Both the position numbers and the translations under genes were made by a program. The notes below the pieces were generated by a model that was not told the DNA's origin, did not search any database, and worked only from the letters and a program-made list of their open reading frames with translations. A stretch of 61,531 nt of DNA, the filler included, from Sluysia triapertura (Eukaryota): assembly GCA_046118255.1 (NCBI GenBank). It is 5 parts of 5 records of this genome, joined end to end, with 100 filler letters (N's around TTAATTAATTAA, not from the genome) between each part and the next. Parts side by side here need not be neighbours in the genome. Positions count along the whole stretch, not along the records: positions 36,307 to 47,849 come from JBJNIA010183479.1; 4 more parts are not named here. One strand, 5' to 3'. The stretch's first letter is position 1. Each line of letters begins with the position of its first letter. This document shows, piece after piece, positions 1,686 through 61,531 of this stretch.

Positions 1686-1934
1686 TATGGTCAAATTTAC
1701 AATTATGATAATATTGATCGTCATGATCCTACTCAACAATAATATTATCAACATTACCATAATCGATCTCAAGTTCGAGAAATATTGTCACATTCACTTC
1801 GAGCCACTGGTAAATTGGGTGAAAACGAAAAGCAGGAAGTACCAGACAATGAATGGAAGTTCGCAGCTAGAGCAATGGACTGATTTTGTATTGCTATTAT
1901 TATCATTTCTTCGGTAACTATTAGAACTAAATAA
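1683..1934 (+). pseudogene. Orphan C-terminal remnant (MA helix and M4) of a nicotinic acetylcholine receptor-like subunit
   Basis: The frame not shown in the ORF track reads ...QVREILSHSLRATGKLGENEKQEVPDNEWKFAARAMD*FCIAIIIISSVTIRTK*. This matches the nAChR M4 signature EWKFAAxxxDRxC. In-frame stops at 1740 and 1881. It directly abuts the truncated gypsy RNase H. Confidence 0.75.
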
Positions 1935-3059: not shown

Positions 3060-6000
3060 GTATGGTATAAACCAGAATTTAGTTGGGAAAATATACATAA
3101 TAACATTTCAGTCAATTCTATTCGCATAGAAAGTAAAAATATTTGGATACCAGATACTTATGTATTTAATAAGTAAAATTATTATGAAAATATTAGAATT
3201 ATTTTTATTCAGTGCAGCTGATAAAGATTCTGGTTTTCTTAATGGTGACTATCTTATTATTCATAGAAATGGTAAAATTCACTTTCCTCTTAGAAGAAAA
3301 TTAAAGACATTTTGTCCAATGGATATAAGCATGTTTCCTTTTGATACTCAAGCTTGTACAATAAAATTAGGTTCATGGGTTTCTACTGGCATTAACTACA
3401 CATATCCCAAGTAAGTTAAATTCAATTTTTCAATATTTATCATAAAATGTGAGCAACTGGAAAATTTTATTGGTTTGATTGGATAAATTACTGAAATAAT
3501 ACTTAGTATATTAAAGAAATGCAATCCTTAACTCATCCAAGTTAAGTCACTGTATTTATATTCAACGGTAAGATTATTTCAACATTTGCTATTGATACTG
3601 AAAAATTTGAAAATTATACTTTGTGGTGATAGTTTATGTTATGTTTGATTTAATCTTACATCTTAATTCTTAGTAGACTTTTGACTTTAATTCTTAAAAA
3701 CTGTTCCTGTTCTGATAATGTTAAATGTGAAAACAGTCAAATTATATTCCTTAATATAAAATTTTCAACTTGCGCTTAACGTAAAAACTAATAACTTTAC
3801 CTTAAGCATTTACATTATATTTATGAATTACTTCGAATATTAATATCTATAATTCTTTACTGACTTAGAATTAAAATCTTAATTATTAGTCCATTGATTC
3901 TAAATTAAATTAATCTTTAATTTAAATTTTTATAATTTTATAAATTTTCTTTGTAACTTTAGCTTAAATGTACTACTTATCGTTTACTTTATTTAAGATC
4001 TTATTTATGAATTTAACTTTCGGAGATGGAGTTCAATATTCGTCTCTCTTAAGGATGGAAGTGCTAATCAAATTTTTATAACCTTTGGCTTTTTAATCGG
4101 ATTCTGTTTTTCAATTCCCCGAACCAGAAATCAACAGGATATTAAGCTTTCATAAAATTTTAGTAGTTGTTGAATTACAATAATAACTGGGTACACAATT
4201 ATTCTAATTTAAATTTACAAAAATCAACAGAGTTTAAGTCTTAACAAAGTTTATCAATATCACACAAAAAAAGTTATAATTGAATTACAATAAGTATTGA
4301 ACATACACAGTTATTTTAATTTAAATTTATTTTTATCTCAAGTTTTAATTTTATAATTGCTAAAATAAACACAATGTACTTTAAGTAATAGTTAATAGTA
4401 TAAACTATAACTATCAAAAGTTATTATTCAATCAGTAATCAATATTTGACCAGTCAACCACGAAATAAGTCAAACCAAAATAAATCAATGCTCCTAAATC
4501 TATAATATTCACTTATATAATTTAATAATTAATTTTAACATATGGTATATAATGTTCTTTCAGCAAATATACCATCATATAGTTTAATATTAACGTATTA
4601 TTTCAGATATACGTTATTGGTATAACTTAATAATTCAATTTCAACATATTGTATATCATGTTTTTTCAGTAAACACGATTAATTTTTCCATAATTTTATA
4701 TACAACATTACAACAACTTACATTCTTAAATTTACGATACATTAAAGATGAATCGGTGCATTATAAATGCATTTTATTTAATTACATTCTCTTTCATTGT
4801 CAAGGAGTCTTTCTCTCCAACGCTAATCTTACTATAATTCAGAAAAGCAGATGTAGAATTCAGTTGTAAATTTATTTCAATTTTTTACTTTTTTATGAAT
4901 GGATTAACGTCAACCGAATTTTTTGAGTGGACTCCAATAATTTGTTTTCTTTGGGAAGATAGAGCAGGTGAAAGGTTTAGTGGTTGAGGAATATGTTTAT
5001 TTAATTGATATTTTGGGGTCTGGTAAGATGTAGTATAGTTGCATCATATATAAGTTTCAAGCTGATAATAGGATTGGTGACTGCATTATTTAATGTGCGA
5101 ATTGTATCAAACCCAATAATAATCTAATAATCCATAATATCGGTTTAATTTGTCATTACACCAACTATAGGTAGGTCATGACCCTTAAATTCGATCAGCT
5201 GTCAAGAATTTGATCGAATTAATATCATTTCATGTACCTGCAGTGATTCAAAACACCTTATTCGAATATATGCATGAATTGGATTACAGTTGATTCTTAC
5301 ATCTTTCCAAACGTAGAATTTATCAATGTTAGTATTGCCTAATCTTAGTAATGGCATCGTGTTGCTCCCAGTTGAGCTTTTTTCATGTCTCACACAGACT
5401 TTTTGATTTCGACCATCGGTAAATCGAAACGATAATTGAAATTACAGTCCAACTGAATTCACCTACTATAGTTTTTATTCTATTAATCCTTGTGTATTAA
5501 TTTCAAAATGAAGTTATTTTTAACTATAGTTTATGTGTATATATTACAATGCAAGAAAATTTATATTCGAACATACAATTATATAAAGATGAAATTCAGT
5601 GTTAGCAATAACATATTATATCAAATCACAAAGTAAACAGTTAAATTAAAACAATCAAGTGATTTGAGTGCTAATATCTTATCGTCACACCAACAACCAG
5701 GGTTGACAGAACTAGTATTAATTTCCCAAAATAAATTCTAATATCTCCTTAGAAATAAATTGAGCAGGGAGTTTCCTCAAAAAATCATAAAAATAATTCT
5801 GATTTAAATGTATCTAAATGGTAATAAATTAATAATTTACCAACTTTTAAAATCCCTTTAAAAATGTACAAGGAATCTCCAAAAAATTAATTTTAATTAA
5901 ATAGATGGGTAATTCCTTAAAAATACTTATTTAAAAGAATATGGGGATTCCTTTTGCAATGATGAGTAAATAGTTAATTATTTTTACTTATAATTTTAAT

Positions 6001-9000
6001 TTATTATTATAAACAAAATTATATTTTATATTAAAAATATTATAAATCATAAATTTTACCATATCTTGGAATCAGCACTGGGCCTCTCCTTGGTAATACG
6101 GTTGACTTTCACGTACTTCTTTTATACTTTTTCACTCTTCAATCACTCTTAAGCTTTTCAATCAAACATTCTCTCAGATAAATCATTACAACATTCTGTG
6201 AGAGAATTAAACCGACAATATAACTTTGACAGTTAAATTGTACGGTCTGTCAAACTGTACCAGATACAGAACGCAATAAATTGATTTATGAATATCTATT
6301 ATTTTCCTTTACTCTACTCAACCTACTTTTACTTTTCACACTAAATTAACAATCACCAATATTGTTAACATGCATAAAAATAATGAATTTAATTTTAGTT
6401 TTTGAATTCAATTGATTTTTGATTTTTCACACCCAATTTTCTTCTAAAAAACGTTTAAGGTCATTATCCTTAAACAAACCATTCTTCAGATATTTCGCAC
6501 TCATTTCTAGGTTCTCCTCTTTCATAGCAATCATTTATATTCAAAATTCATTATATTTTCATCATTCTAAGTATAAAAAATTCAGTATTCAATAATTAAA
6601 AATTAATTAAAATTTAACTTTACTCAATACTAAGGCTTTCCTTTCATGAACTCGATCGAACAACCTTTATAGAAAGGTTTTTTAAAAAATTGTGTACGCA
6701 GTTTCAATTTTGACACAGCGTTCAAACTTTATTCACAAAAATGTACTTTTTCTTTATTAAGTTAATTAAGAATTTAATTATTTAATTTATTTTTAGACTT
6801 AATCTTATTTTATGTTTAAATGTTTTATTAAGGTTATCTATTTCTTTTATTTGATACATTGCATACCAATCATCGTCATCCATTCCGGCAAAATCTTGAA
6901 CCGGTTCACTTTCATCATTTTTCATAAGATAAATGTGATTTTTTTGATCCAATGAAAAATGTGATGAATATTATGGACGGGTTATTTCGTAATGACCATA
7001 TTTCTTACAATGGTTACTATATATTCTTCCTCTAATGTCAACTTTATTTCTTTCCATATAAAATTTATTTTCATTATCATTTTTAAATCTAATTCTGTTT
7101 GGAAATCTCTTTGGTTGTCCATATCTGTAATCATATCTTCTTGACGAATTGTTTCGACAATCTCCTCTAGAAAATTGTGTCTATTGTCCTAATGGCGTAA
7201 CTGTCCATGAATCTTGCCTTATCAAAGTCCAATACTTCCTTAAGGACATCCGTTCCCATAATCATATCTTCGGGTTATTTTCACATGACGCTTAATTTAA
7301 CATCGAATTTTGGCCTAATCCACAATAGGATTTCATTATACCGACTATATGTATTGCATCTCCCGTAATTCATGCTAAATGTGGCAAATGGTCGGTGAGT
7401 CCTTTTAATTCAATATCAGTAAGAAACTTTTCATTTATTAGTGATGTCGCCGCTATAATTATTCTTCCATTTATTCTTGTTAACCACGGATCATATTGCT
7501 CCGCTATGATTATTATTAGCACAAATCGTATAAATTACGTTTTGTGGAGATGACGTTGAGGAACTGGATAAACTCGTTATTTCATTTCTTCTTTTTAATC
7601 CATTATGTCTTTGATTCCATTTGATTTTATTGCTTGTAATTCTATGCTTTGCCTTTTCTTTTTTAATGCATTTATATGTGATTTTGCATGGTGATATAAC
7701 AAATATTTGTCAGGAACAGAAAACAACCGATTATCAATTTCCAAGTAAATCCTGAGATTTTATATATTCATACAATTAAAATACTTGTAATATTATCAAT
7801 ACTTTAATTATTATGTAAATATCTATTAATCCCGAAAATACTTGGAAAAATTAGGAAACTACCCCAAATGATCTAGGCCTAAAATGATCTACTAAAATTT
7901 TGTCTACTATATCTCTTAACACTTTTGCCTTTAGAGGGAATAAAATTTCTTCCCACGCAGCTTTTATGGTCTTCTTTGGTGTAGATACCTTAATGTTTTA
8001 ATTTGCCTTTAATTTAACTTTAATTTGCCTTTCAATTCTGTTAAACCTATCACTTTAGATGTTTTAAACTGTGAAGAAGTGATGTCCACATACTGTTGTC
8101 AATTTTGTATTCTGAAGCTATTGCACTTGAACAATACATGAGTTTTGGTTTTATTTTATTACTCGGAAATAATATTCTAGTTACTGGTTCTAAATATGTT
8201 TCAATTGTATTTTCACCTTCTTACAAAACCTACCGAGTACTCCTTCTTCTAGTGGTAACAATAGTGCTACTAAGTCTGGATTAGTAATTGCCATTGCCAG
8301 ATTTGTTCGTAATATTTCTTTATTTTATTGGCAATTTCTTGCTACCGTAATTTGATATATTTTCTCCAGAGTCATTAATCCTAGAAGGTAGTAAAATGTC
8401 TTTTTTATTAAAGTACATATTCAATTTCACGTTTATGGGTCAATTTCCTTTTTTAGTATTCTTTGTTCTGATGTATAAATACCTCTATAATTCGTCTCCA
8501 TAATTTCCTTATCGCACCATAATTCGTCTACTTTTGGTATGGAAATCCAGAAACTAAATTAAACTTAACTTGTTTCAAAAATATTAAAGGACATTGAAAC
8601 TTATTTAACCATGTTACAACTGGTTCTATCGGCCCTGCAGTATGGTCATGACATCATGGTCCTTTTTCGAAAGCAAACTTTCGTTAAATGACTTTAAATT
8701 TATCACATAAGTTTCTTGGGCTATTGCATTATGATAAAGTTTCCTTATTCAATTTATCTATGTATACATTTCCCGCTGTTCTAATATTATAAATTATTTT
8801 TTCATTGTTACTTATTCTTAACTTATCTCCCTTGTTTAACTTAACTGGTTTAACTTAACTTAATTTAACTAGTTTCGAAAGGTTTTAATATGCTTGATAA
8901 CTCCATTATTGAAGAGTTGCTATGGTGCCCACAATGCCACAATGTACTTTTTTTTACTAAGGTTGTAAACGAATTTTCTTCTTGATAGACATTTAGAATT

Positions 9001-11604
9001 TTTGTTCCTCTTATTTGGACTCTGTTAGGTTTTCTTCGTGTACTTCTTCATCATTTTCATCTGATACATTTAACTTGTTTTTGGTTGATGTCAGATTAAT
9101 TTTATTTTCCTGTTTATCCCATCCTCGCAAAATGTCTTTAACTTTCATTCTTTCTTTTTCTATTGCTTCTATATCTTCTTTTCTTTCCATATCTTATTTA
9201 ATTATTTTATTTTAATTATGTTATTTTATTCAAAAGATTCAAAATATGTCCATAGCTTATAAAAGGTTTCATTTTCACTTTCTTGCGTTATTCTTGATAT
9301 AGCTTTTTTCTTAGTCGTTATCATAGTATAATTTTATTCTTGTAATACTCTTGCTTCTTCTTCCGTTAAATTATTTCGATTTTTCTGTATTCATTTTCTT
9401 CATAGTCTTCATCATAACTATCGTAATCTTCATGTTTTCTGTTTTTTTGTATGTCATAATTACAATTTATCTGTCCTTTACTATTTTTGTCATCTTTCTT
9501 GTCGAAATTTACTTTTCTTACAAGGCCTTGTATTCTTAATGGTTGGTAATCGTGTTACCTTACTTAAATTTTTGCTCTGGGTACTAAACTTTTATTGCAA
9601 AAGCAAATTCGTATAGAGTTTCTAATTTTTCTGTTTTCTAATTTTTATATAATATTTTGTTTTTTGAATTATTTATCTCCTTGAATGTTTGAATCGCTAC
9701 GTCTGTTAAATAATTTTGAATTATTTAATTTTGTTTCTACCTCCGTCTAGCCGTTGGCTTTTGCTAAGATGCCATACTCAAACAAAAAATCACAAAGTTC
9801 ATTTTCATTTCCGTTAAACTTAGACACATATGGCAAAATCACTGTAGGTTTAATATTATTTGAGATTTGCGACATATATTCCTTAAATTAGTTCATGGGT
9901 AAATTCATTTTTATATTCTCCAAAGAAGTGCGTCTATCGTTTTCAGATTCCTACTGTTTTTTAATCTCTATGACTGTACCTTATAGATTAAGGTATACTC
10001 TTTAATCTTACTTAAATTACATAACGCAGTCTTATACTTAATTTTAATTTGTCTTAAAGACGTATAATTGGATACTTTTACTTATATCAATGATTAATGG
10101 TACCAATTCGGGCGCCAAATGTTGCTGCTTTTCACTAAATTGAACTTACCTAAACAAAATCTACCTTAATGGTTATGAGTTCACCCAAGTTTGCGGTTTG
10201 CTTTTACTTAGATTAAGAGGCACCTTTCGGATTTTTAGCTAGAGTTTTATAAACCTTACTTAATTATTTACCATTCTATCTTGTATGATGAATTCAATAG
10301 TTTATTCAAACCCTTTTTCTTTTTAATATCAAGAACTTAGTTTTACGTAAGGGACTAATTATTATCCATGTAGTTAATCTGACTCTTATTCTTAGATTAT
10401 TGATAAATATTTGTGTCTAATAGTTTCTTGCTAGCTTTTACCTTTTTAATGTGAGCACAGATTAAATATTAATAACAAACGAACAACTTAATACCAATTT
10501 TTATTATATCACAAAACTAAGTAATAAAAATACTATATATATGCTAAAGTGTACACTTTCGATAAAAATGAAGCAAGTAATAAAAGAATAATGTTTATTG
10601 CTCTAAATTTCTTTAATTAATATTTTAAAAAATGACCTTGTCACTGAACTTATGCGAGCATAAAAATATAAATATTTTAAAGTGAGATTTTATGCCTTAC
10701 GTAAACTTATGGATTCTAATTCATAAAAAATTTCCAAAATCTAAATGTTTTCAGGATCGACAATAATATCAGAATATAAATTATCAAAGATCCAATGGTG
10801 ACACTGCTTGAAGGATGTCGATGCTAATTGATGTGTAGGTTGGAAAGATTGAGAATATTGATAAGTCTTGTTAAATATTTTTATGTGGAGTTTATGTGAA
10901 AATAGTTGTCTTTTTATACTTGAAAATTGAGCATATTTATAATTCTAAATTAATTTATTTACAAATATTAACATATTTATAAATCCAAATTGTTAATTTA
11001 TAGAAACGTTTATCTTAAGTCAAATATTAATCAATCTATTTGATAAAAATATTTCAGTTATTTCAAATTTAACATTATCAGTATAAAAATATTTATAATT
11101 TCTCACCAATTATCTGTTTCATAACTTTTTTCTTTATTGATATAATAATAATAATTATTATTATTGTAAGTAAATAATAACTGAATTTTAAATTGATATT
11201 TAGAAATATTAATGGCACTAAACTTATAAATTTGGATAGTTACACAGATAACAGTGATTGGATTCTTTCTGAAGCACGGATTCATCATCAACATACCACC
11301 GATATTATTAAAGATATACATTATCCAGTGAAGAATTTTGACAAGTCCATCAATTTAATCTCAGAACAGAGCTATAAATTAATTATTATCGTACTGATTC
11401 TAAATAGACGTAGTTTTTTCTACATTTGGATTTTAATTGTTCCATTTGCAATGTTAACCTTATTATCGATTTTGACATTTTGTATGCCTAGTACATCTAA
11501 TGAAAAACTAACAATAAGTTTATCGATTTTTATGGCATTCTCAATGTTTATGATCATGATTTCAGAAAGAATTCCTCCATCAACACAGAATGTTCCTTTA
11601 ATTG
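3060..11604 (+). CDS. Cys-loop ligand-gated ion channel, nAChR-like non-alpha subunit (partial; exons 3060-3172, 3213-3410, 11204-11604)
   Basis: Exon 1: VWYKPEFSW...IRIESKNIWIPDTYVFN. Exon 2: Cys-loop CPMDISMFPFDTQAC and loop B GSW. Exon 3: M1 (RRSFFYIWILIVP), M2 (NEKLTISLSIFMAFSMFM) and IPPSTQNVPLIG. GT..AG introns of 40 nt and 7793 nt have matching phase 2. N-terminal exons, intact M3 and M4 were not found; a possible MX remnant MSPKWCCGIIF lies at ~11750, so the gene may be decayed. Confidence 0.88.
5060..5400 (-). mobile_element. Degenerate retropepsin-like (gypsy protease) remnant
   Basis: Minus strand VRINCNPIHAYI... followed by IIIGFDTIRTLN, resembling the V.ING....A.IDTG and ILGMD motifs. 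The catalytic DTG is lost. Confidence 0.35.
5680..6400 (+). repeat. Dispersed LTR-like repeat, homologous to 60540-61531
   Basis: Shared blocks: caacaaccagg(g/t)ttgac, taaattg..agggagtt.c subrepeats, caata(t)aactttgaca, tttcctttactctactca. Confidence 0.7.
6850..10762 (-). mobile_element. Ty3/gypsy element copy A: 5' LTR, PBS, gag, chuvirus-like glycoprotein, protease (pol deleted); lies in the nAChR intron
   Basis: LTR end CA at 10121-10120 is followed by PBS TGGCGCCCGAA. Gag reads MSQISNNIKPTVILPYVSKFNGNENELCDFLFEYGILAKANG (from 9875). Env motifs: NVYQEENSFTTL..LWHCGHHSNSSI (~9000-8905), LRTNLAMAITNPDLVA, ETYLEPVTRILFP..CSSAIASEYKID, TM region ~7870-7720. Protease: RINGRIII..AATSLINEKFL and DMIMGTDVL (~7490-7240). 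The LTR start at 10762 (TGTCGA) is tentative. Confidence 0.85.
10107..10117 (-). promoter_or_regulatory. Primer-binding site complementary to the 3' end of tRNA-Lys(UUU)
   Basis: Minus strand ...GCAACA tt TGGCGCCCGAA, matching the first 11 nt of the tRNA-Lys3-type PBS, 2 nt after an LTR-terminal CA. Confidence 0.85.
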
Positions 11605-13466
11605 GTTTGTTAATAACTTATTTTATTAATAGTTTACACCTAAAATAAGTTCTCTTGTCTTTATAATATGATTTCTCAAGTATGAGCTCTATATATTTCC
11701 TATTTAGAATAAATATAATTCTAAATAAATTTTTTCAAAGGTCGTATCATGTCACCAAAATGGTGCTGTGGAATTATTTTTTGAAAAATGAATTCCAACT
11801 AATCAGAAAAAGTATAACAATAACTATTAAAAAATTATCTTTTATAAAGTTGGGATAAAATACAGATAGTAGATAGTGATAGTGTCAAAATTTTGGTCGA
11901 CTCGTGAAGTACACTTTTTTCAACACTAAAATAATAAAAGTTCCTCCAAATTGATTTAAATTTTATTGAATGCACATACAATATGACCAAAAAACATAAT
12001 GTTTATTCATATAAACATAGTATTATATTTCTATTACTTGTAAAATTATAAATGGCCTTTATTTTTCACCCACAAAATTAAGTAAAGTTCAAATTATTTC
12101 GTATAAAGATTTTAATATCAGATAAAATTTAATAGCTAAAAATTAATAGCTAAAAAAAGTGATTTCTTAAAAAATATAACTTTCCATTTCTTTTACATTC
12201 TGAAAGCTTAATTCAACATAAAGATTACCATGTTTCTCTAGATTCGTAAGCAAAAATTTGTTTGTATTATTTGCTTTAAAAGTTTTAGTTACAATTCATT
12301 AGTTTTGCATGTGTACACCTTGTCGTTATTAAATTTCAGTGTCATTAAAAAGATGAACTGACTTATGTTGATACCGTTAAAAGTAGGTAAGTGTTTTAAA
12401 AGAGGTTCAATTATTTTAAAATAGCTTTCGAATAACTGATTATTTCAGAAGAAATTTTATTCCACAAAATGGATCTTGTATATATAATTGTACATATTGT
12501 TGAATTTCTTCTTGTTTATGCATTTATGAACACACTATATTTAAAGGATATTAAATTCTTGCTTTGTTTTTAGGATAAATAAAAATTGATTATGCAGACT
12601 ACTTAATAAATAATGCCGCTCTTCTAACTGTATAGGAATTTCCTTGCGCATTAAAGAGCTTGGTCGCAAGAGCAAAGTTCCTGAGGATATAAAGGAAAAG
12701 CCTCTAATAGATAAATTCAAAAGTGGATTTGCGTAAGTTCAATAGATAACAAATCCTTTAAGTAAGTAGTTAGGAAATTAAGAGATGTTGAAAGTTCCCT
12801 AGCTGAAGAAAAAGATAAAATAAGTTAAATAATTGAAGAAGTTACATACAATCAATTCCTTTGTTGGAACAAAAGTGACACTCATTACTCAAACCAAATT
12901 AGATTAAATCCGACAAGTCTTGTCAAATCTTCAATCTTCCAAAAAAGTAAATTTGACTTTACATTATACTTTTCTACTTCTTTATAATTTTAAATAATTA
13001 AATTTCTCTTTAAAATGACATTTTTGTAACATTATAATCACAAACCTAAATTTAAATATGATTTTTTTCTAATTTTAACAACTTCATTCACATGAAAATT
13101 ACTTTTCAATGCTCCATAGATCAACGCACCTTTTCTGATTTAATAAATATCAGTTTCGGAAATGTTTCTTCACAAAGATTCATTATATATGTTTCTTGTA
13201 CATCCGATTATTCACGATACGTAATTCCTTTTTAACACTTAAAATTGGGCATTAAAGTTAAAAATGTGAGTTAAACTTGAAACTTTTTTAAATGTATGAA
13301 TCCAAAATTGTATGTAGATGTTTTTGTTTTTTTCACTGATTAGTTAAACAAATAATTTAATATTTTATTGAAAATAATAATTATTATATTATATTATTTT
13401 TATCTGAAATTGTTATTAATATTAATATTTTATTATTATTTACATTTATCATTATTATTATTTACA

Positions 13467-13638: not shown

Positions 13639-13972
13639 TTAGTTTTTAATTGATTTTGATATTCATAAAATTCAATCATAAAATTCAATTTGGCGCCAGA
13701 AAAGTTACTTTGAGTCTTATATTTAGGCATTAAAATTCCATTCAGACCTACAAACTGAAAATCACGATATTTGGAATTACTTATTTAATAGAAAAAATTG
13801 TAATTTGAAAAAATGATAAAAAAATTAACTATGATTAAATACGCAAAATAATCATTAGATCAAAACCACATCTTGACACTGTTAGCTGAATTAATAAAAC
13901 AGATTCATACATTCTACGTTGGGTATAGCATTAAATGCTTGCGTAACTGTTAAATTAAATGTTTAGGAAAAT

Positions 13973-14031
<59 letters not shown>

Positions 14032-14032
14032 C

Positions 14033-15390
14033 CTTCAAAAACAATTAAAAATTCATCTGTCGAAAGTTGGATACAACATAAAGGTTCAAAATTAATATCC
14101 CTTAAATAATGCAAATGTGAATCTAAATTAGCCATATTTTTTTGTAATAAAATTAATGTTTGAGGTTTTGGATTATTTACATTTTGTACATCCCATATTT
14201 TGTAAAGGGCTACACAATCTTGCATACCAACAAGAATCATTGTTTCATTAGCAACTGAATTTGGTGCATTAAGATTATTATTATTATTGAAAGTATTTAG
14301 AAATTCTATTGAAAATATATTATTTTGACAAGATATTTCTTTAATTTTTTTATGGCGACCTTGTTCTAAAGTCAATTGATACAATATAAGCGTTGAACGA
14401 AACGCTGCACAAAGTATCCAACAAGTGTGAGATGATTCCATTGAAAATGAACGTGATAAATGGTAAGATGCCAAATTTATAGATGATTGATTGGAAATAT
14501 TGCTTGTGTGAGTCCAACATTGAGCTACTCGAAAACATGAGCAAGGAATACGAGTTGAAGCACCAGCATCAACAACAATGGGATCAAATTCCAACAGTGG
14601 AGTTCTCAGTCTAGATTCTGTGAAAATACCCGAGAGTATTAAACGCAGCTGTCGTTGTTTACCTAAATGGAAATACAACTTTTTCTGAATTATAAAAATC
14701 AAATTAGTAATTTGTAAAGATAAGAGCCAATAAAAATTAAATTCAATAAAACTTTTATATTTATGATCTTAATATAAACATCTTATAATATATAAGATCT
14801 AATAATATGTCTTACGATCTTAAGTTTTCAGTTTTACTAGATGATCTACTTTCACATAAATGTATATGTCTTTAAATTATTTCTTAATAATACATAATAT
14901 TTGTCTAAACCATGGTTTCTCAACCATTGGGTCAAAAATTTGGCAGCAAAACAATCTGAAAAAATTTTATTGAATAGCGTGATAAAAATGTTAAGAAACG
15001 CTGGTCTAAACTATCGCAGATACATTTAAAGTCTGCTCTTCACAATGTCACATTAAGATACATAATGCACAAGAGTATTGTTTTTATGTAAACGATCCTA
15101 TTTAATAAAAATTAAGATTCGTATAATATATTAAAATTCTAGCGGTTTCATAATATATACAAATCCATATCTATTAAGTGTGTATAGAGTTAATTATTAT
15201 CATCAAATTTTAATGTATTATCAAATAATATTAAATTGATTAATCCAAAATTAGTTAAATCAAATTCTAAATTTAATTCTTGGATATAAAACAAAAACCT
15301 AACCTTGAACAGCAACAATCAATTGTAAGTCATCTTGATTCAAACATTCAATAATAAATGTTGGTTTTTTATCACCGACTCTAAATGATC
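14033..15390 (-). CDS. MRCK/Citron-family kinase, CNH domain (exons 15390-15304 and 14662-14033)
   Basis: Spliced reading SFRVGDKKPTFIIECLNQDDLQLIVAVQG|KQRQLRLI...FEPLCCIQLSTDEFLIVFE resembles the MRCK CNH domain (RVGDxKK..., SGRNRHVRL, EYLLxF). GT..AG boundaries with matching phase 1. Confidence 0.75.
14911..15003. mobile_element. 93-bp hAT (Buster/Charlie-type) MITE in the CNH-gene intron
   Basis: Perfect 8-bp TSD GTCTAAAC (14903-14910 and 15004-15011). Imperfect TIRs CATGGTTTCTCAAC / GTTAAGAAACGCTG. Confidence 0.85.
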
Positions 15391-29674: not shown

Positions 29675-29870
29675 AACGGAGTGTCAGAGAGATAAAAATG
29701 AACATTTAAAACGCTGCATAAGCCACCAGAATTATTTGTTGCGTCTATGGAGAAAAAGCAGTCAGTGAACGAACAGCACAAAAGTGGTTTTCAAAATTTC
29801 GAAGTTCTTCCCCATCCCACGTATTCGTCTAACCTAACCCCAACAGATTTTCATCTTTTCCGCTCCATCG
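29675..29870 (+). mobile_element. Internally deleted mariner transposase
   Basis: ECQRDKNEH, ATRIICCVYGEKAVSERTAQKWFSKFR (HTH), then EVLPHPTYSSNLTPTDFHLFRS (YSPDLAPSDxHLF motif). Confidence 0.85.
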
Positions 29871-30800
29871 GTTTTGTGAGATTTTATATTAATTCTAGAG
29901 AACTTAATGAAATAACGAGAAAAGATGAATATCCTTTACCACATATAAACGACGTGTTAAATAAACTTGGAAATTCTAAATACTTTACAAAATAGGATTT
30001 ACAAAGTGGTTATAGCAAACTAACATCTGAAGAGGACTATTGAATGTGAAAAAATGCCTTTGGAGCACCAGCTCCATTTAAACGATGCATGAATTTCGTA
30101 CCAGAAGGGTGTCAACATACAATGGTACATATAGATGTTATTATTATGTATCCATTGGATTTTGAAAGGTATTTAAAGGATATCGAGGAAGTTTTCATTC
30201 GATCAAAAAATGCGAAAATAAAAATAAAACCAACAAAGTTTGAATGGACAAAAGAGAAGGTTGTATCTTTAGGACACATACAGTTACAACATGCATAAAA
30301 AAGATAGAAAAGGTTACTAACTTTACTAAGCAAGTAGAAGTATAAGCTTTACTTGGTTTAGCAAATTATTATAGAAAATTTGTAAAAAACATTTCAGCAA
30401 TAGCAAAGATGTTGCACTTATTCTTATAACAAGTGCAAGTGATTTTGCAACTGAAATGGTTTTAGCACAAAAAAATAGTGATTAAAAAGAATGCATAATC
30501 ACTTATCAAAGCTCTAGATTAAACACCTTGAAACAGTTCAGACAATATGTACTAGGTCACAAAAAATATATTTATAAATAGATCATAAAGACACTATTAG
30601 AAACGTGACTGGAGTTTAGCAAAATAGCAGAATATGATATTAGCATAACTGATAGAAAAGGAATGTATTGATTTTGTCAAAACTTGAAAAAGTAGAAATA
30701 CGAAACGAAAAAGGAGAAATATGAGCAATGGTAGTTAACATTAGGAAGAAAGACAAGAGCAAAGAGAAGATCCAGAATTAAAGCTCATAATCCATCTCAT
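29871..30800 (+). mobile_element. Decayed Ty3/gypsy RT-RNase H
   Basis: RELNEITRKDEYPLPHINDVLNKLGNSKYFTK*DLQSGY, MVHIDVIIM (YxDD box decayed), LLGLANYYRKFV, FRQYVLG. Resembles the RT of the 37-38 kb element. Confidence 0.85.
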
Positions 30801-36306: not shown

Positions 36307-36809
36307 CAATTAATTGATTTGAGAAATAACAAATATTATCAATCAATATTCAATCATATGAACTTAGATGAGTTTTGGCTCAATGTGAAAAAATCTTTTC
36401 CATTAATTAGCCTGAAAGCAATCAAAATTTTATTACCATTTTCGTCTTCATGGTTTTATGAAATTGGCTTTTCAGCATTAACTGAAATCAAATCTAAAAA
36501 GCGAGAAAGACTTCTTAAAATTGATGATGAAATGCGAGTTTGTTTGTCGTCCTTGGACCTTCGATGGAGTCTAATTAGTTCTCAGAAGCAAGCTCATTTG
36601 TCGCACTAAATAAAATTTTATGATTGTTTTTGCTTGTTGCCCCAGTTTCTGGTTGTTGCTTTAATCTTAAAGTTTAATGGAATACAACAATTATGTTAAT
36701 TATATGATTTTATTTAATAGTCTTTTTAAAATATTTGCTTGGTGGTGTGTCGCAGAATTTTTCTAAAATAAAAAGTGTGCCGCGGCTTAAAAAAGTTTGG
36801 GAACCACTG
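36307..36809 (+). mobile_element. hAT (Buster/ZBED8-like) transposon 3' end: dimerisation domain and TIR
   Basis: FWLNVKKSFPLISLKAIKILLPFSSSWFYEIGFSAL..KSKKRERL..MRVCLS...KQAHLSH. Terminal GGGAACCACTG followed by ctctag. Confidence 0.9.
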
Positions 36810-39800
36810 CTCTAGGTATTTACATATTTCTATATATCTAAATATTTACACAAGAATTTTGTATTTTATTTTAATGTACGTATTACGCACAACTGTAAAT
36901 ATGTATTTTATTTTATTGATTTTACATCACTATGGCACTGGTGTTGCGAAATTGTATGCATTACAGCTATTATCCTTACAATTTCACTAATATGTCTTTT
37001 GTGTGGTGTATCTATGTTGTGTGATGTAGAATAAGAATTAATGTTATTGTTAGAAGAAGAGTTAAAACAAGGTTAATTAAAGTTGTCAGAATGTGATGTC
37101 TCTGGGACAAATCGAGATGGAAACATCGACAGTTACTAGTTGTTGTACAAGTTGTAGCCACTAAAATTGTAAATTGAATTATAACAATTTTGATTCGCTT
37201 AAACTTAATTAAAAAATTCACAATTTTAAGTTATAATAAAAGTGTTAAAAAGTACCACAATATTAATAAGTGAAAAAAAATTAATTTTTCGTTATTAATC
37301 AAAAGATCCGTATAGTATACAATGACAGAAATTTTACCATATCTCCTGACATCGTCCCTATGATTATATAGATATGTTAGCGGTTTGTGATCAGTGTATA
37401 AATAAACTTTCTGTCCTAATAAGTAATGTCTGAATAGTTTACATTCGTGTAAAATAGCCAGACATTCTCTTTCAATTGTAGAATAGTTCATCTCGGCCTA
37501 ATTTAGTCGTCGACTAGCGTATGCAATTACTGCTTCCGAATTATTTTTGTCTTTCTATCCGATGATTGCACCAATAGCTTAATTACTGACATCAGTAGTT
37601 AGTATAAATGGTTTATTAATATCCGGTTTTTTAATTAGTCGTTCTTTTAATTCCTTAAATTCCTTAGTCTGTTCGTCTGTCCACTTAAATTCGACATTTT
37701 TCCTTGTTAACTTTCTGAGTGGTTGTGCTATATTAGCAAAATTCTTAACAAATCTTATAATAATTAGCTTCATAGGAAACTTTGAATCTCTTTTTCATTG
37801 TCAGGTTGTGGAAATTTTACCAATTTTCTATATTTCTCGGATTGGGCTTTATTCCATCTTTTGACACTGTGTCCTAAAAACTTTTTCCTCGGCCCAAACG
37901 CATTTGGTTTGTTTAATTTTCAATCTATCTATTTTTAGTCTATTTAAAATATTGTCAATATCTTTTATATGTTTGTCGAAATCTTTAGAAAATATTATTA
38001 TGTCATCATAACATTTTTGCATCCTGATAGTACAAAATTCATGCACCTCTGGAACGTTGTAGGTGCACCAGTTAATCCGAATAGCATCTTTTCACATTCA
38101 TATAGTTCGTCGCCACGAGTAAATGCTTATGTTTTTCGTTTTCAGCGATATCGATTTGCCAATAACCGCTCTGTAAATCAAGAGTTGTAAAGTATGTGGC
38201 ATTTTCTAATTTATCCTGCATTTCATCTATCCGCGGTAAAGGGAAAACGTCTTTCCTTGTTATCATATTTAGTTCCCTAAAATCTCATCGTACCATCTTT
38301 TTTCTTGACTAATAAAACTGGAGATGAGAAAGGTGAGAAAATTGCCTTTTTCTTGATATCTATTTGTTCTTGCATAACCTTTTTGATTATTTATCGGTAT
38401 TCTGTATGGATTTTATCGGATTACTTTATCTATTATTAATGGTTTCTCCAATTTCTTGCAATTTCTCTTGGGTAACGATAAATAACACTGAACTATTGAT
38501 CTATTTGTTTCTTAGTCAAATTTTTATTAGTAATTTCTATTTCGCTATAATCTTCGTCTTGTATTTCATGTTGTAACTTTATATTACTTTTTACCTTACT
38601 TTCATTTTTATTTTCCGAAATTATGTTAATGTGTTCTGTATAGAGCCATTTATGTAATTTATTGCATACTGCATAGCTATTCCTATGTTTAACTTTTCTT
38701 GATTAACCTCTTATGCGATAAATATGATATTTCCGGTTAACAAACTGTTTGTCTTGACTGGCATTATATATTCATTTCTTTTTACTAACCACATTAGTTC
38801 GTAAACATATACATCGTCATCATCAGTGGCTCTATTTGATGGACTATATATATATATTGGTTAAAATCTAATGTTATTCCTTTAAATTGAAATAATATCT
38901 CCATTCCCATTATCATTTCTTACGGACTTTTTTTCATAACTCTTAATTTAATTTCTAACTTATTTTGTCCTAATTCCCGTATAGCTTTCATTACTCCGGT
39001 TATGTTAATTGCATTGCATGTGACTTCTGATAGATGAGAGGTATGATTAACTAAATTTTTTAATTCATCTTTATTTAAGAAACTTTCATTGATTAAGGAG
39101 GCTACTGATCTTGTATCACTTAGTGCTATTACTACTCTACCGTTTATCCTAGCATTTACTATGATTTACTATGAATCATTATAATTGTTGTTAGCGCATA
39201 TCATATATACCACACGCGGTGGTGGCGTTGAAGTAATAGGATAGTCCTTTTTTCTGATTTTCTTTAGTTGTTTCTATAGCTTTCTAAATTTCAATGTATT
39301 TTTGATTTTTTTATTATTTCTTCATTTTAACTGTTTTGTAACGTCTGTAATTGTTGTATTTATTCCGTGTATTGCCTTTCTTTTCTTAATGCATTTGCAT
39401 GGTGGTGCAAGAGGTATTTGCCAAAAACTAGAAACATCCAATTATTAATTTCCACGTAAACTCTGAGATTTTATAAATTCCGACTACTGAAAATGCTTCT
39501 GAAATTATTAACGCTATTACTTTAATTATCATATATATTAATTATCATATATATATCATAATTATTCCTATTAGTCCAGAAAACGCTTGCCCTAATATTA
39601 AAAATTTTTTCCATATTTGTTTTAATGTATCTTGTGCAGCTCTTTTAAAATGATTGCGCCCTCCATAGTAATTCGAAATTTACCTGTCCATTCTTTTCTA
39701 CTGTTGCTTTATTTACGATTTCAGTTAATATATTTCCCGCCAAGCTGCGTGAATATCATCATTCGTATAAATGCCAGAATTTTGTATATTTTTGTAGCTA

Positions 39801-40701
39801 AAATTTTTAGTTTTCCCTTTAACTCGGTTAGTCCTATTATTTCTGGAGTTTTCACCTGGCTCCTATGCGGTAATAATATCCATAAATTATCATCAATTCT
39901 ATATTCCGGCGCCATGACATTAGATCAGTGCATTAATTTTGGTTTGACTTTGTTATTTGGAAAGATTACTCTGGTTACTGGTTCGAGGTATGTTTCTGTT
40001 TTACCGTATAATATAAGTAATTCATTCGGTGGTTGACCTTAATTGCACTTCTACCTTTATACATTTGTACGTTTATAATACCTCTCTCATTACCAGACCA
40101 AAAACTCCTTATTCTAGTATTAGTAATGGGGCGACTAAGTCCGGGTTTTTAATAGCTATTGCCAATTTTGTGCGTAGAATTTCTTTTTTCATTTGACATT
40201 ACCGAGTAACCATAATTTGATAAATTTTTTCTAGAGACATCAGACCTAAATGATAGTAGAAATCGATTTTATTGTTAAAATAGGTATTCAATTTTATATT
40301 TTTCGTGTCGATGCCTTAGCTTGTTTGATTATTTTTTCTGAAAGATAAATTCCTTGATAGTTAGTTTCCGTTATTTTCTTTCCACAACGAATTACTGTTC
40401 ATTGTACCTTTTTCCATATCAAAACTCTCATTAAATGATTGTAAACTTATTCGTATGTCTTATGTGCGACAACATTATGATAGATTTTTCCTTCATATTC
40501 TATCGTTCCTTGTTCGCACGTCCCATCTATTAATACATTTCCGGCGGTTCTTGTATTATAAATTATCTTTTCATTGTTTCCCATTTTTAATTTATCTCCT
40601 TTTATTAAACTTATATAACCGGTTTAAAATGCATCTCTGCATTGCTTAGGTAATATCTTAAATGGTTTGAGTACATTTGATAATTATATTATTGATGAAT
40701 G

Positions 40702-43709: not shown

Positions 43710-46700
43710 AAATGGCTATGATGACAGCAACACCAGATTGCTACCGATCGTTTTACCATACATTCTTTTGTTAGAGTCGTAACTAGGTTACTCTCTTGGT
43801 AAACACTCGTTACTTCAGTATCTTTCACTTGTATTCGGTTCGGCCTCGATTCAGGGCAATATTCTGTGTTCAATAATGAAAATTTTCCACCTATTTGTGG
43901 TTGGCTACAATTAAGCGCTTTTATTGTGTTAGTTCTGTTTGTACCAAACATTGCTAATATTAAACAACATATTATTTGTCGAGTTCCCTATTCTCGGTAT
44001 CGCCGTATTTAATATGTTTCCGTTGTCGAACAATTGTGTCATTATGTATGTCGGCTCTTCTGTTTTTTGATTCTTTTTTTCCTTTTATTGTATTGCGCCA
44101 ACATCCTTGATTTAATAACAAAATCTATTTTATCTATTTTATTTCTTGGTTACATTGGTATATAACATATGTATCTAATTCTTTATTAATTAACTTATTT
44201 ATTACTACCTTTAATTGTTCATTTTTTATGAAATCACTAATGTCTTTATCTTTATATCTTTCTTCATATTTTGTTATCAACTAATTTATAGAATCTTTAT
44301 AATGATTGTTGATTTCTGCCAGTAACCTTTTATATTTATTAAAATTAGAAAACTTTTCAGATAAAAAGGCATAGATTATTCCTTTACTATCTAATTCAAT
44401 TGCATCACCATTTTCACATTTTTTGATAAATCTATAGTATTCTTAACAATCGGTGTAGTTATTACATCATTCTCGTCTCTTCTTGGACGACCAGGTCTTC
44501 TTTTAACCGTATTTGTTTCTTTATTCACAGTTTCTATGTATGGATTTCTATTAAGATTCACTATATATCAGGTAGCGCATCATTTTCTGCTTCAGAATCG
44601 ATACCAACTACATGTATATCACCATCCTCCATTAAATGTCTTATTAATGGAGGGAATTCATTATCTTTTTTATTTGTTTCGTTTTCAACGTTATCATCAT
44701 TTGAATTCTCATACCATTTCTGCCTTTATCATTTCATCATGGTCACCTAACGGGTAACCGTAATCTATCAAAAATTCTCCAGGTTCTAAATATCTGTTAA
44801 AGAAATAGAATTTCACGTCCATTATTGATGGATCGTTAAATTTAAGCATATCTATTACATCCTCTACATAAATACATTTACTAATTCAGCAAATAATACA
44901 TTAATATTCATTAATGTTTCAGGTTGCTCTATTTTGTCTGCTAATCCCACTTTCTTAGTAATTGTCTCGCTTTAATAAAAGTAAACATGAATCTAATACT
45001 TTGTCTCTTAAACATATCTAAATTAATCTTTGAAAGTATATCTAAATTTTTGTTAGTATTTTTGCGTCTGCTAAATCTTAAAGAAATGTATCTACCTCTT
45101 TGATTAAACCACTAAATGTTGTTTTTTGTGTGCTAAATTCTTCGGTTGGTATTTCTTCTTCATTACCCAAAATAATCATTGGCTCACTGTCTGAGAGTAA
45201 GTCATCTATTTCTTCTTCTTGCTCGTATGAGCTAATTGTTTCTTCTTCTTCTAAGTTTGATACACAATCAATATCTCTTAATGTTGATTTTATATCCTCG
45301 TCTTCGTCTGTTATACCACTATGCTTCATCCATCTACTTACAATTGCTTCGGAATACTTTCTTTCTTCTTCAATTTGTTGATAACTTTTAATTATTTTTT
45401 ATTTTTGTTGTTCTTCTATCTCTTTTCTCTTCTTATCTTTCTTTTCTTTTTCTTTTACTAATTGCATAAAGTAATTATGTAAACAATTAATAAACATGTC
45501 ATCCTCATCATCATGTCTACTTCTAGAATGTTTTTGTGGAGATTCAGGGTAATTAAAAATAGATATTTCATTTGAATTAAATGCCTTATTCTATGATACT
45601 GACTTACTCACTGAAGGACCAGCACATAGATTTGCAGCTTAAGAAAAATAAGATTGGAGATATATGTTTATATTTATTCTTAATTTTGCTTATTTCTTAA
45701 TTCTAGATGCTTACAGCAATTGAGTGTTCTTAATCTTTTATAAATTAAAGAATAAAAGGAGTATTATTATGATTCGAAGGATGCAGAATATTAATTTCAA
45801 GTATTATTTTATTTTCCAAAAATTATCAAAATGTTTATTAATATACAAATTAATTAATTTAATTTTTTCTTAAAATAATCGGTAGACTAACGATTAGTTT
45901 AGGTAAACTATTAAATTGAATTTCCAGAGATTAAATTGATAAATAGTGTATGGTTTCTTTTCTTCAAACAAAATATATCTTCCACCGTGTAAACAATTTA
46001 ATTCTCTTCCAAATATGACCAATACAACATATATAAACAATATAACATATATAAACTATAGTTATTTAATATTAATATTAAACTACAATATTTTTTCAAA
46101 ATTCAATTGTATTTATAGTTATCACTATCCGTAAACAATATTTAATTTTAAAATAGTAATAATGATATTATGTTTTTAATTATAATTTTACAATATTTTT
46201 GCCAACAATAATTTTATTTTTTATAATTTTACAATATTTTGATAATAATAATAATAATTTTATATTTCAATAGTAATTTCAATTTAATTATACATTTAAA
46301 TAAAAATATATTTATTTTTATGTATAATAATTTTTTCAGTATTTATTTTTTAATAAAATATTTTTACACCTCCTTTACATATAACTTTTTACACCTTTAC
46401 ACCTCCTTTACAGTAAGGAAATTAGTAAATGCTGATCGTAATTGTATTAAGATGGAATGATTTAAATTTATAATTACTTTGATGAAATATAAAGCATGAT
46501 TTCAATTTCGAAATTTAATTTCAATTTTGAATTTTATATAAAATATGTTTTCAACTTCAATGAACATGACAAAAAATCTTAAATTTACAATCTTGTTAAT
46601 ATGGTTATGATTTCTAACATAAATTTTACTTGTAATAGCTTTAACATCAATGTTTATAAACTGATTAAACGGTTCTATCATAGACTCTTCATTAAAATGA

Positions 46701-57299: not shown

Positions 57300-57564
57300 A
57301 AATAACAAATTCGATTTCTAAGAAACACCTTAATAAAAGGGTTATGTAATTTGTATACTCGAATCAAATTAATTTATTAAAAGTAACGTTAACCGTTTGT
57401 TGTAAGATATAGCAAAGGCTTATTAAGTGAAGTTATAAGTTATAAAAAGTCCTAATAATACACCTTCAACAGTGGTATAAATTGTATGTATTAGGCGGAC
57501 CGACTTCTTAGATATTTAGCAGGTAAGATTAAGATTTTTAAGTTTCAATAGAAATACCCTTGCA
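57300..57564 (+). repeat. Structured LTR-like end, copy 3 (hairpins degenerate)
   Basis: CCTAATAATAC...GTATGTATTAGG stem at 57451-57495, then GGCGGACCGAC; ends CTTGCA. Confidence 0.6.
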
Positions 57565-57784
57565 TTGTTATTATGGTTTTGTTTAATTAAATTTGTTTTT
57601 TTGCTGCATTGTCAAAAATTCTAAAATGTTATTATCATGTAGTGGAGATGGAAATCATGTAGTTACATATACTAATATTTTCAAGATGATATTAGCAAAT
57701 CAGAAGATAATATGGTATTACTTTCTCCAAAACATGAAGATTTGTGTGGATGATGCATGTTTATTTATGGTTTAAGTAATTACG

Positions 57785-58345
57785 TTGCTGATTCAAATAA
57801 ATCCATTATTATTCCTTTCAAAATGGTCTTTGATTCGAATAAATCCAACCGAGTTAAGAAACTCAACTTTAAATTCAAATGATCTGATTACAGAACATAT
57901 AAATCAGAAAAGGAATAATTTAAATTTATTCGTAGAACAATATATTAAGAGTAAGCTGGTCGGTTCGATTAGTGGAACCTTTATAATATTTTGTACTCAG
58001 CAGATGTCATCAAAATTTCGAAGCAATTTAAAGGAAGGAAAAGGCCTAAAAGATATAAATAATGTAAAACTCGTAGATCTAGTTAAAGTAATACAATTAA
58101 ATGCTTTTAAGTACAAATGTTTGAATGTTGTAGATATAATTTATACATGTGTAAATGCTGAAGATATAATTGATGTAAAAGATATGCATACTCTTATGTA
58201 TGAATGCTTAAACATTGTAGATACAAACTATTTGAAAGATTTTTACGTAATAATTTATAAATACTCTAATTTTGTAGCTCTAAAAGATCTTTACGTAATA
58301 AAATACAGATTTATTGTTAGTGTAAATATAAAAGATGTTACATAA
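57785..58345 (+). other. 186-codon open frame with loose internal repeats, unknown function
   Basis: Long ORF for this AT content with repeats (YKCLNVVD / YECLNIVD / KDxYV). Lies between two structured LTR-like ends. No recognised domain. Confidence 0.3.
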
Positions 58346-58969
58346 TCTATGTTTCTAATGTAATTGTAAGACTTTCGTGCAACTATTTATAATTGTCAGA
58401 ATTAACATCGTATGAAACTTTTGTATATTTGTATTTTATTTATTTATTATTATTATTATATTTCTGTATATTTGTTATTATTATATTTTAGAAAAATTTT
58501 AAATATTATTATTATATTTTGAAAAAATTATATTTTAGAAAAACCTTAAATACTATATTTTAATAAAATAAAAATGATTAAAATAAAATATTTTAATTAA
58601 AAAATAAAATAAAAATAATCAAAATAAAATAAAATTAATAATTTTATTGTTTTATTAAATTAAAATTACTTTAACAAAGAAAATTGTTTTATCAAATTAA
58701 ATTATTTATTTATTAAAGAAAATTCAAGATGGAGAAACAAAATTAATATATAAGTAAGCAAAATTTCATTTAAAAAACACAATTTAGAATTAGATTTCAA
58801 GTATTAAGAGTCTAAAAGTTGAAGAAGTAATTAACTTGGAAAACAATTTTGCAGAAGATTATCAAGAAATTCACTGTCGATTTTAATTAACAAGTAATTT
58901 TAATTATTGTAAGGTCGATTCACCATTCGGGAATCCTAAAATTTACTGAAAATCTATTTTTTATTTCGA

Positions 58970-59545
58970 GCAACACCATACAAAGGGTTGCGTAACGTTT
59001 ATTTTAAAATACGAAAGTACCAACTCCGGTTGAGTAACTTGAATTAAATTGTTATTTTTATTATACATATACATATATACATACGTGTTAATAAGTTTTA
59101 GTTTTTTAAGTATACGTTTAATAGATATTTGCATTACATGTAGAGTTTTTAATTAATTTAAAAGAATATTTTCAACAAGCAACACCATAAAAAGAGTTGC
59201 GTAAATTCTAAATTCATAAAAACAGTTATCATAAGCAACACCATAAAAAGCGTTGCGTAAGTATAAAATCATAAAGACATTTTAAAGCAACTCCATAAAA
59301 AGGGTTGCGAAATCATTAATTATTCTAACAAAAGCAACACCATAAAAAGGGTTGCGTAATATATATAAAATTCGAATTAATTTAATTAATAAACTGATTA
59401 TCTGTAAGTTAAAGTGTTAGATAAGCACTAAGTATAAGAAATTATAATAAATCCTAATAATACGTCTCCAATTTTGGTATAAAGCGTATATATTAGGCTA
59501 ACCGACTCTTCAGATAATTTGCTTAAGTATAAGAAAATACTAGCA
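58970..59545 (+). repeat. Structured LTR-like end, copy 4: five GCAAC-type bulged hairpins plus the conserved stem-loop
   Basis: GCAACACCATAAAAAGGGTTGC variants at 58970, 59179, 59235, 59287 and 59334. Stem at 59453-59497. Ends TAGCA. Confidence 0.75.
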
Positions 59546-60539
59546 ATTATAAACATTCGAAACACATTTACAAACGAGGTTCTTATCAACATCCGTTACT
59601 TGTTTATTAACAAAACTCTTATCTAAGTAAAGCGATGTTTTACTTACAATTTTGATACACAAAACAAATGAGTCTATATTCATTACGTAATTAAAGATTT
59701 TGAAAACAACATTATCAAAATAAAGTTATAAAAAAAGACGATGTATCTTTATTTACGAAAGAGATTAAATCACTCTTATCTTCATGCTTGTTATTAAAAG
59801 AGAATGTATTGTTAACTCGACTTAAATTATAATATATTGAGATGGTTTCATCGAAAGTTATGTATTCGGCTAATGTTACATCTTTAACCTTATGTTGTGT
59901 CTTTTATACTTTTTATTTTACAAATTATTAATCAAAGCCCAATAATTAAACAACTTCAGAATCTCGATATATTCTATAAATAATCAAAAATCACAATTTA
60001 AAAGATAAAAATTATTCTCTATGACAACGACAATATAAAGTACTCTTTATAAAAAAATACAAATTATTCTTTATAACAATATTGCAAATTACTCTCTATA
60101 ACAACGCAAATTACTCTTCCAAACAAATAAAAAACAGGGATGACGCAACTTAAATGTTTGTATCCGTATTAATGCAAAAATATAATCAATACAAAATAAA
60201 TCACTGACCCTTTGTCTTCTAACCTTAAATATTTATATTGACCAATTTGTTGCGTCTTTAAAAATTGTTAAATATTAAATCTTAATATTATTGTCTTGAT
60301 TTCAATAGTTAGTATATCAAGTATAATTTTACCGTAATCTTCTTTTACAGCTATGTCAATAACTTTAATATCAACTTTAAATTTCTTGACTATCAAATCA
60401 AAACTAAAACAATAATGTACTATTAAATAAAAACCAAAATAGAATTTATTATTAATATGAGTCTTTTCAAAATGAAACTAAAATGGCAAAAGTAAAAATA
60501 GCGTTTATAATAATAACGAAAATATTACAATTTCTCTAC

Positions 60540-61531
60540 AATAGCAACAACCAGGTTTGACGCAACAGACACTAACAATATCTAGAAAATTAATGGTAAT
60601 TATGTTATTTAAATATTTTAGGTCAACGTAACAAAATGTGACCACGATTACAATAAAATCTATTGGTAACAATAACTTTAAAGAAAAACTTAACAGTAAT
60701 TTCTAAAGATAAAACACTTAGTATTTTGATAAATTAAATTGCGTAGGGAGTTCCTATTCAATTCACCTTAAAATAGCTGAAAATTCAAATGTAATTTAAA
60801 TAAAATCTTCAACAAAATTACGTAAATTGTTTCTCAATTAATTACCTTAAAAATAACTAAACATCAAATATAATCTTAATAAAAAAACTGTGTAGGGATT
60901 TTCTTCTAAAAGTATCTTAAAAATATCTAAAAATTAAATATTATCGTTAACAAAAATTGCGTAGGGAGTTGCTTACAAAATTACCTTAATATGTCTAAAA
61001 TTAAATATTCACAAAAATTACTTGGAGTGTTTCCCATAAAACTATTTTAGTAATAACAAAAAATCAAATTTTAAAAATTTACAAAAATTGCGTGGGTTAT
61101 TTCTCACAAGACTATTTTAATAGTAACAAAAAATGAATCAAATTAATAGCTTATATAATCTATTATATATAATATAATATATAATCTATTACTTATCTTA
61201 TTTTACTATAATAAAATAAAAAAAATAAATGAAAACTTTACCCTATACATGGGTCTTCATACCATTGTGTCATTGTACCATTGTGTCATCATTGTTATTG
61301 TGTTGTAAAAATTTTGAAATCTTTATGTTATACTCTCTCATCATCCAATCACTTCACAGTCTCACAACCAAACACTCTCTCACATAAATCATCCAAACCT
61401 CTTTGAGAATCAAACCGGCAATAACAACTTTGACAATTACATCGTATTGTCTGGCAAACTTTATTAGGTACAAAACATAGAAATCTGATTTATTATCAAC
61501 CATCATTTCCTTTTACTCTACTCAGTCTATT
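60540..61531 (+). repeat. Dispersed LTR-like repeat with internal subrepeats, homologous to 5680-6400
   Basis: aaattgcgtagggagtt.. units at ~60736, 60890, 60955 and 61085. The 3' part aligns by eye with 6150-6330. Confidence 0.7.

Follow-up and report, generated by a model that had tools for sequence, protein, structure and literature searches.

The analysed stretch (hereafter the window) comprises 61,531 nucleotides of the genome of Sluysia triapertura (GCA_046118255.1), in five N-spaced parts, with a guanine-cytosine content of 18-37% (~25% overall) and ATT microsatellites. Its part from record JBJNIA010183479.1 (window positions 36307-47849; 11.5 kb) carries, on the minus strand, a decayed retrotransposon copy in which a predicted chuvirus-like envelope gene (env) stands ahead of protease, reverse transcriptase (RT) and RNase H. 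The domains of the copy were read from single-frame translations, with X at stops, scanned against Pfam. A preliminary description, made from the sequence alone, had quoted 12 motifs, and all of them were recovered on the minus strand in the order stated: (i) ALNCS (43918), FSLLNTEYC (43882), VYQ (43804), ECMV (43765) and CCCHHSH (43732) from the N-terminal part of Env, (ii) CRDAF (40641), CQMKK.. (40198), YKC.KVEV (40069), YLEPVTRV (39990) and SGIYTNDDI (39778) from later on the env side, and (iii) IWKKF.. (39616) and PPPRVVY.. (39225), which lie furthest downstream.

Five env pieces of the window matched the family PF24664 (Monjiviricetes_fusion) colinearly, over profile positions 4-95 (E 9e-5), 90-181 (2e-6), 297-395 (3e-15), 398-461 (0.012) and 467-584 (4e-5). 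The first is the N-terminal piece of the ectodomain (43710..43915), 28-49% identical to the 12 matching relatives; the remaining pieces, from position 90 onward, lie in 39600..40701, a broken region, also detected by tblastn and with our own env profile, that has an internal deletion. Nine of the ten aligned cysteines of P0008, a relative found in the protein search described below, are retained in the window env. The ectodomain is preceded by an internal signal-peptide-like stretch (43916..43987; hydropathy peak 2.93), with a predicted cleavage right before LNCS, and, given the threshold applied, 10 of 14 relatives have a matching hydrophobic stretch just 5' of env. Behind the ectodomain, hydropathy predicts a membrane anchor (39490..39599), whose motif recurs in 13 of the 14 relatives. 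Next come, in order, (i) a retropepsin-like protease with a degenerate active-site motif, DTRS (38860..39165; Asp_protease, E 4e-5; tblastn to P0009 and P0152), (ii) an RT spread over several frames (37880..38411; RVT_1, E 2e-6) and (iii) a connection and RNase H region (37342..37752; RT_RNaseH, E 6e-31). The distance from the env anchor to the protease is ~156 codons, within the 124-218 amino acids found in the 13 of 14 relatives with the anchor motif, and thus leaves no room for a gene break between them. Motif order, Pfam order and this spacing bear out the description of env as lying ahead of pol, on the minus strand and without a gap.

On the 5' side of env, the same strand carries an acidic low-complexity coding remnant at the edge of the copy (45080..45680), read by translation and without a Pfam match, which likely corresponds to the linker found behind Gag in the relatives. 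A likely remnant of a ubiquitin-like domain (44712..44885) aligned by hhalign to similar segments of relatives with a score of 16.2, which none of 100 shuffles equalled, yet with a probability of just 3%. Ubiquitin and Rad60-SLD clusters of the Atlas reached 0.85-0.86 for this segment, under the 0.9 mark, and both hmmsearch and a PDB search gave no match to it. By direct reading, the motif KRRPGRPRR (44478..44504), which we take to be AT-hook-like, follows on the minus strand; 4 of 12 relatives have a similar motif upstream of their env.

The copy is dead and able to make none of the element's proteins. Ten single-frame segments totalling 1,065 codons contain 29 stops, some of them in short out-of-frame stretches, and the frame changes at least eight times. 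The ectodomain, previously described as continuous, is split by a nested insertion of 3,008 bp and has lost ~80-90 codons of its middle (PF24664 positions 181-297 are covered by ~37 codons, and P0008 residues 278-410 by ~42). Homology ceases a little short of the RNase H terminus; the tblastn matches end at 37342-37297. In run X1, the contig set used for summed depth (which is not copy number), depth drops from 51,000 to ~1,000 between 45163 and 46305, and on the other side it drops below position 37162; the copy appears to be 5'-truncated near 45600-45900. No capsid domain was detected in the copy with a gag profile (31 of 60 shuffles scored as high) or with small gag profiles in hmmsearch, and small helical and Bcl-2 profiles gave no hmmsearch match in the element.

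The fold of Env was approached through P0008, whose env is 33-48% identical to the window env pieces. An AlphaFold model of this protein was built with 105 sequences (mean predicted local distance difference test score 81.9). Compared with the PDB, it matched herpesvirus gB (85 matches at E ≤0.001, best 2e-13), and compared with BFVD it matched chuvirus-type glycoproteins (best E 2e-39). The profile and structure comparisons proposed in the preliminary description, the latter made on this relative, found both similarities and, together with the PF24664 pieces in the window, they support the prediction that Env is a chuvirus-like class III fusogen of the gB fold. Family and fold are common to this Env, to the G proteins of Chuviridae/Jingchuvirales and to herpesvirus gB; the Env of the window family differs in sitting in a retroelement polyprotein and shows 10-21% identity.

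Relatives were sought with HMMER, using a 300-codon env frame of the window against 1.84 billion representative proteins. Of the 151 matches, the best were long chains, and 19 that were long or top-scoring were picked for a Pfam scan. Env was followed by protease in one chain in 12 of the 19, with RT and RNase H also present in five and integrase in four. The seven chains without protease comprised six with env alone or with Bcl-2 and one with env joined to RNase H. Env after integrase, an order which the preliminary description had named as contrary to its proposal, was found in none of the 19. Among further cluster members, two of four ran from env through integrase (3,003 and 4,844 amino acids), and the full protease-RT-RNase H-integrase order was seen in six relatives. 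Gag features were present 5' of env as Retrotrans_gag in P0015 and a zinc knuckle in P0020, and Gag features were also found in P0005. Nine of the ten relatives looked up were ENA gene calls; the tenth was an NCBI protein labelled bacterial, likely a host contamination. The furin motif RxK/RR was absent from the ectodomains of all five relatives checked. Two env pieces and a CNH exon of the host gave no matches among word-indexed proteins, a result of low sensitivity, as the full HMMER search succeeded; viral contigs searched with patterns from P0009 and a search of Rfam also gave none.

These chains support, for the relatives and as far as translated sequence can tell, an env in frame with pol in one polyprotein, with an internal signal-like stretch on one side of it and a membrane anchor on the other. 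The proposal of a one-polyprotein ancestor is accordingly supported, through the relatives, in its part from env through protease, RT and RNase H to integrase; its cytosolic Gag part found no counterpart in the window copy, in which no Gag was detectable. Alternatively, with the same gag-env-pol order, pol might have had a frame separate from that of env (or env one separate from that of gag), expressed via splicing or frameshifting. The frame does change between anchor and protease in the window copy, and the search of Chary and Hayashi (eLife 2026; PMC13524379) for GAG-ENV-POL elements let the ENV-POL gap reach 2,000 nt, with the word polyprotein unused in the text of that paper available to us (all statements on cited papers refer to such available parts). 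However, this frame change carries no signal, because the copy shifts frame at least eight times, inside domains too. The anchor-protease spacing moreover fits single-chain relatives, the relatives nearest to it in RT are single-chain proteins, and in the planarian element Burro/GYPSM1 env shares the reading frame of gag and pol, between which it lies (Arkhipova and Yushenova 2019; PMC6431247). We therefore regard separate frames as distinctly improbable and retain a single polyprotein as the likely ancestral form.

Some relatives carry further domains. In P0002, P0009, P0152 and P0154 another signal-like stretch and another membrane anchor lie C-terminal to integrase in the same chain, which suggests a second surface protein. 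Among P0002, P0005 and P0154 there are as many as six protease-like domains along with ankyrin and C2H2 fingers, whereas P0003, P0008 and P0013 have a Bcl-2-like domain directly before env (P0008 by Pfam; P0003 and P0013 by eye). In P0023 a chuvirus-type glycoprotein is fused straight to RNase H, which may be a chimeric gene call.

On its sequence matches, the window pol is of the Ty3/gypsy type (Metaviridae). The best PDB match of the RT/RNase H piece was Ty3 Gag-Pol (E 2.5e-26, versus 1e-5 for retroviral RT), and PF17917/PF17919 were matched. A BEL/Pao identity was rejected, given this Ty3/gypsy-like pol and the lack of any BEL/Pao domain among the Pfam matches of the relatives. The mosquito BEL/Pao element Anakin reportedly has its env located after pol. 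Anakin resembles the window family in carrying a glycoprotein of the same chuvirus family within a long terminal repeat (LTR) retrotransposon, but its pol is BEL/Pao, not gypsy (PMC7642597, via PMC12440569 and PMC13524379).

To place the window pol, 80 generic gypsy loci were drawn by RT alignment, the env alignment being too diverse for a locus scan. The env of this family was found at none of the 80, in a scan for which the window served as the positive control. After exclusion of the 25 loci whose RT-RNase H match was not full-length, the remaining 55 and seven env polyproteins formed a reference set of 62. All four single-frame RT/RNase H fragments put env-carrying polyproteins first among these references. 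A 57-amino-acid RT piece was up to 74% identical to env-carrying relatives and, in a quick tree, clustered with five env polyproteins with a support of 99. The RT phylogeny that had been proposed thus joins the RT piece to the env polyproteins and leaves the RNase H piece unplaced.

A second, more decayed copy of the family lies on the minus strand of another joined contig (7100..10100; blastn 68-80%, tblastn, env profile). It holds a weak gag-like stretch (a weak match, with 1 of 60 shuffles as high), env pieces and a protease-like remnant, past which it runs into unrelated-looking sequence, not RT. Outside the nested insertion, run X1 depth was 10^4-10^5 from ~45900 to 37300, versus 14-28 for unique contigs, so the family is very abundant. 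These observations bear on whether a chuvirus glycoprotein, as an endogenous viral element, fell by chance beside a gypsy pol fragment unrelated to it. In favour of such an accident, the copy survives in pieces and several unrelated element remnants lie in the region. Against it, the second copy repeats env and then the same protease lead-in, env and protease share one chain in 12 of the 19 scanned relatives, the RT clusters with those relatives, and depth is high over both env and pol. A chance juxtaposition is largely refuted by these findings and we give it almost no credence.

We are therefore confident that the locus holds a copy, broken and truncated, of a high-copy Ty3/Gypsy element with a chuvirus-like env ahead of protease, RT and RNase H, whose ancestor likely encoded one membrane-spanning Gag-Env-Pol polyprotein, as in flatworm GAG-ENV-POL elements. 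It should be noted that several observations count against this explanation. The one-frame gag-env-pol order is taken from relatives at 30-55% env identity, and these are metagenome-assembly gene calls, in which the gene caller may have read through stops. The fold comes from the relative P0008 only, with low whole-chain TM-scores to gB (0.3-0.4), and the topology, like all membrane-stretch calls in the window and in the relatives, is drawn from hydropathy only. The tree was a short search among 62 references with no named clade, and its connection/RNase H fragment is unplaced, although the five rows closest to this fragment are env polyproteins. In the copy itself, no zinc knuckle or other Gag feature was detected, no integrase follows RNase H, no LTR or flanking direct repeat was found around it within the window, and no primer site was detected, the copy being truncated at both ends.

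The 3,008-bp insertion (40702..43709, minus strand) has TG..CA ends and was delimited by its junctions, by empty-site contigs, by the second copy and by depth. It splits env between CCCHHSH and CRDAF, so that 3 kb separate the pieces matching PF24664 positions 4-95 and 90-181. A 5-bp target duplication, CATTT/CATTC, with four of five bases equal, flanks it at 43710-43714 and 40697-40701; from base composition, the chance of such a duplication is 0.035 and that of TG..CA is 0.002, the ends having been picked by eye. Two run X1 contigs represent the empty site, joining 40697 to 43711, and the second window copy is uninterrupted at the insertion site. Inside the insertion, on the minus strand, lie an intronless DEAD-box helicase pseudogene (41430..42446; Pfam DEAD, E 3e-6 and 5e-8; Helicase_C, 8e-6; weak PDB matches to DEAD-box proteins) and an Unkempt-like CCCH zinc finger remnant (41132..41224; zf-CCCH_UNK, E 1.4e-5, below the curated cut-off), together with CCAAT-like boxes. 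Over the helicase the summed depth was 1,500-4,100, and the first 480 bp of the insertion had 3,500-8,200, compared with 15-28 for single contigs; because of this contrast the insertion is taken to be a multi-copy repeat. A 3-kb mobile unit entered env after the retrotransposon copy had integrated. Whether this unit is a solo LTR carrying a helicase cargo gene is, in our estimate, evenly balanced. A Ginger-type DNA transposon was rejected, the terminal inverted match being only ~8 bp. A narrow literature search found no DEAD-box/CCCH cargo in retrotransposons. This mobile unit possibly matters in its own right.

Elsewhere in the window, host exons encode the transmembrane region of a ligand-gated (neurotransmitter-gated) ion channel (11181-11645, plus strand) and a CNH domain (13953-14768, minus strand). 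These two exons indicate an animal, and the env similarity, taken with base composition, suggests a flatworm as the likely host. Other gypsy remnants, of integrase (E 6e-15) and RT (E 2e-7), lie at 525-1681 (minus strand) and 29870-30557 (plus strand). The C-terminal remnant of a hAT transposase (36310-36800; Dimer_Tnp_hAT, E 0.008) is situated close to the element's 3' end. Short repeats of 45-84 nt, both dispersed and in tandem, occur at 57437-61122, 17894 and 27210; some of them are ~70 nt apart and have a TTGCGTA core in common. They are likely the ends of DNA transposons.

The preliminary description regarded the element as possibly of an undescribed type. The env-before-pol layout is real, but the architecture is already published: planarian Burro elements were described in 2019 with an env that sits between gag and pol in the same frame (PMC6431247) and GAG-ENV-POL gypsy elements with a gB-type ENV in 2026 (PMC13524379). 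The latter paper describes such elements, whose ENV is of the HSV (herpes simplex virus)/gB type, in nematodes, bryozoans and flatworms, lists nine flatworm and ten bryozoan elements termed 'ancient errantiviruses', including Smed_errantivirus_1-6, and reports young intact copies, up to 215 in Schmidtea mediterranea. The window copy resembles these elements in its Ty3/gypsy pol, in a gB-type env before pol, in being multi-copy and, by hydropathy, in the signal-like stretch and anchor flanking env (PMC13524379). Its env motifs VYQES, C..H.S, C..AF.TG and TNY.G.Y.S also resemble, by eye, the Smed_errantivirus and Platyhelminthes C1a rows of supplement 2 of that paper. Unlike those elements it is decayed and truncated, and a single polyprotein is not discussed in the available main text of PMC13524379. 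Env also precedes POL in the non-canonical nematode endogenous retroviruses of Sacco et al. (2022, via PMC13524379), which are metaviruses of nematode hosts.

Burro, for which Grohme 2018 and Jurka 2007 are earlier sources (via PMC6431247), exceeds 25 kb with an open reading frame near 5,000 amino acids; its env matches mononegavirus fusion glycoproteins, a ubiquitin/SUMO-like domain stands upstream of env, and decayed fragments are known from another planarian (PMC6431247). The window copy is like Burro/GYPSM1 in having env before protease and a putative ubiquitin-like segment, weakly matched in the window, upstream of env (PMC6431247). It might thus be the remnant of a true giant Burro element, not of a compact relative, a reading that is compatible with a Gag-Env-Pol ancestor and would alter only the name. 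The likely ubiquitin-like remnant speaks for it, as do close relatives with Bcl-2, ankyrin and extra proteases and lengths of up to 4,844 amino acids. However, Pfam and profile scans detected no Bcl-2, MATH, BIR or ankyrin in the window copy, its protease is single, and its env-RNase H spacing is compact. A giant element is accordingly a minor possibility.

In an active ancestor of this kind, Gag and the linker would remain cytosolic, the internal hydrophobic stretch would serve as a signal anchor, and host signal peptidase would cut ahead of the ectodomain, which would fold as a gB-like trimer in the lumen of the endoplasmic reticulum. The second hydrophobic stretch would stop transfer, so that the cytosolic tail would carry protease, RT, RNase H and integrase, and the element's own protease would free the enzymes from it. 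We infer from this a flavivirus-like, membrane-threaded topology. Since the signal-peptidase cut would put Gag and Pol on separate chains, Pol would need another route into particles. We tentatively propose, at somewhat less than even confidence, that in the published class signal peptidase parts Gag from Pol and the enzymes are packaged via the Env cytoplasmic tail, while the internal signal anchor keeps Gag on that membrane too and all three components are made 1:1:1. This route is not discussed in the available text of PMC13524379 and PMC6431247. If true, Env-tail packaging would be unlike the retroviral Gag-Pol route; it concerns the published class and not the dead window copy.

An env ahead of pol is unusual and of mechanistic interest, but the decayed copy of S. 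triapertura extends this known architecture by no more than a single further host and family. What would matter is how such polyproteins are processed and packaged, and the natural young copies are better suited to that question.

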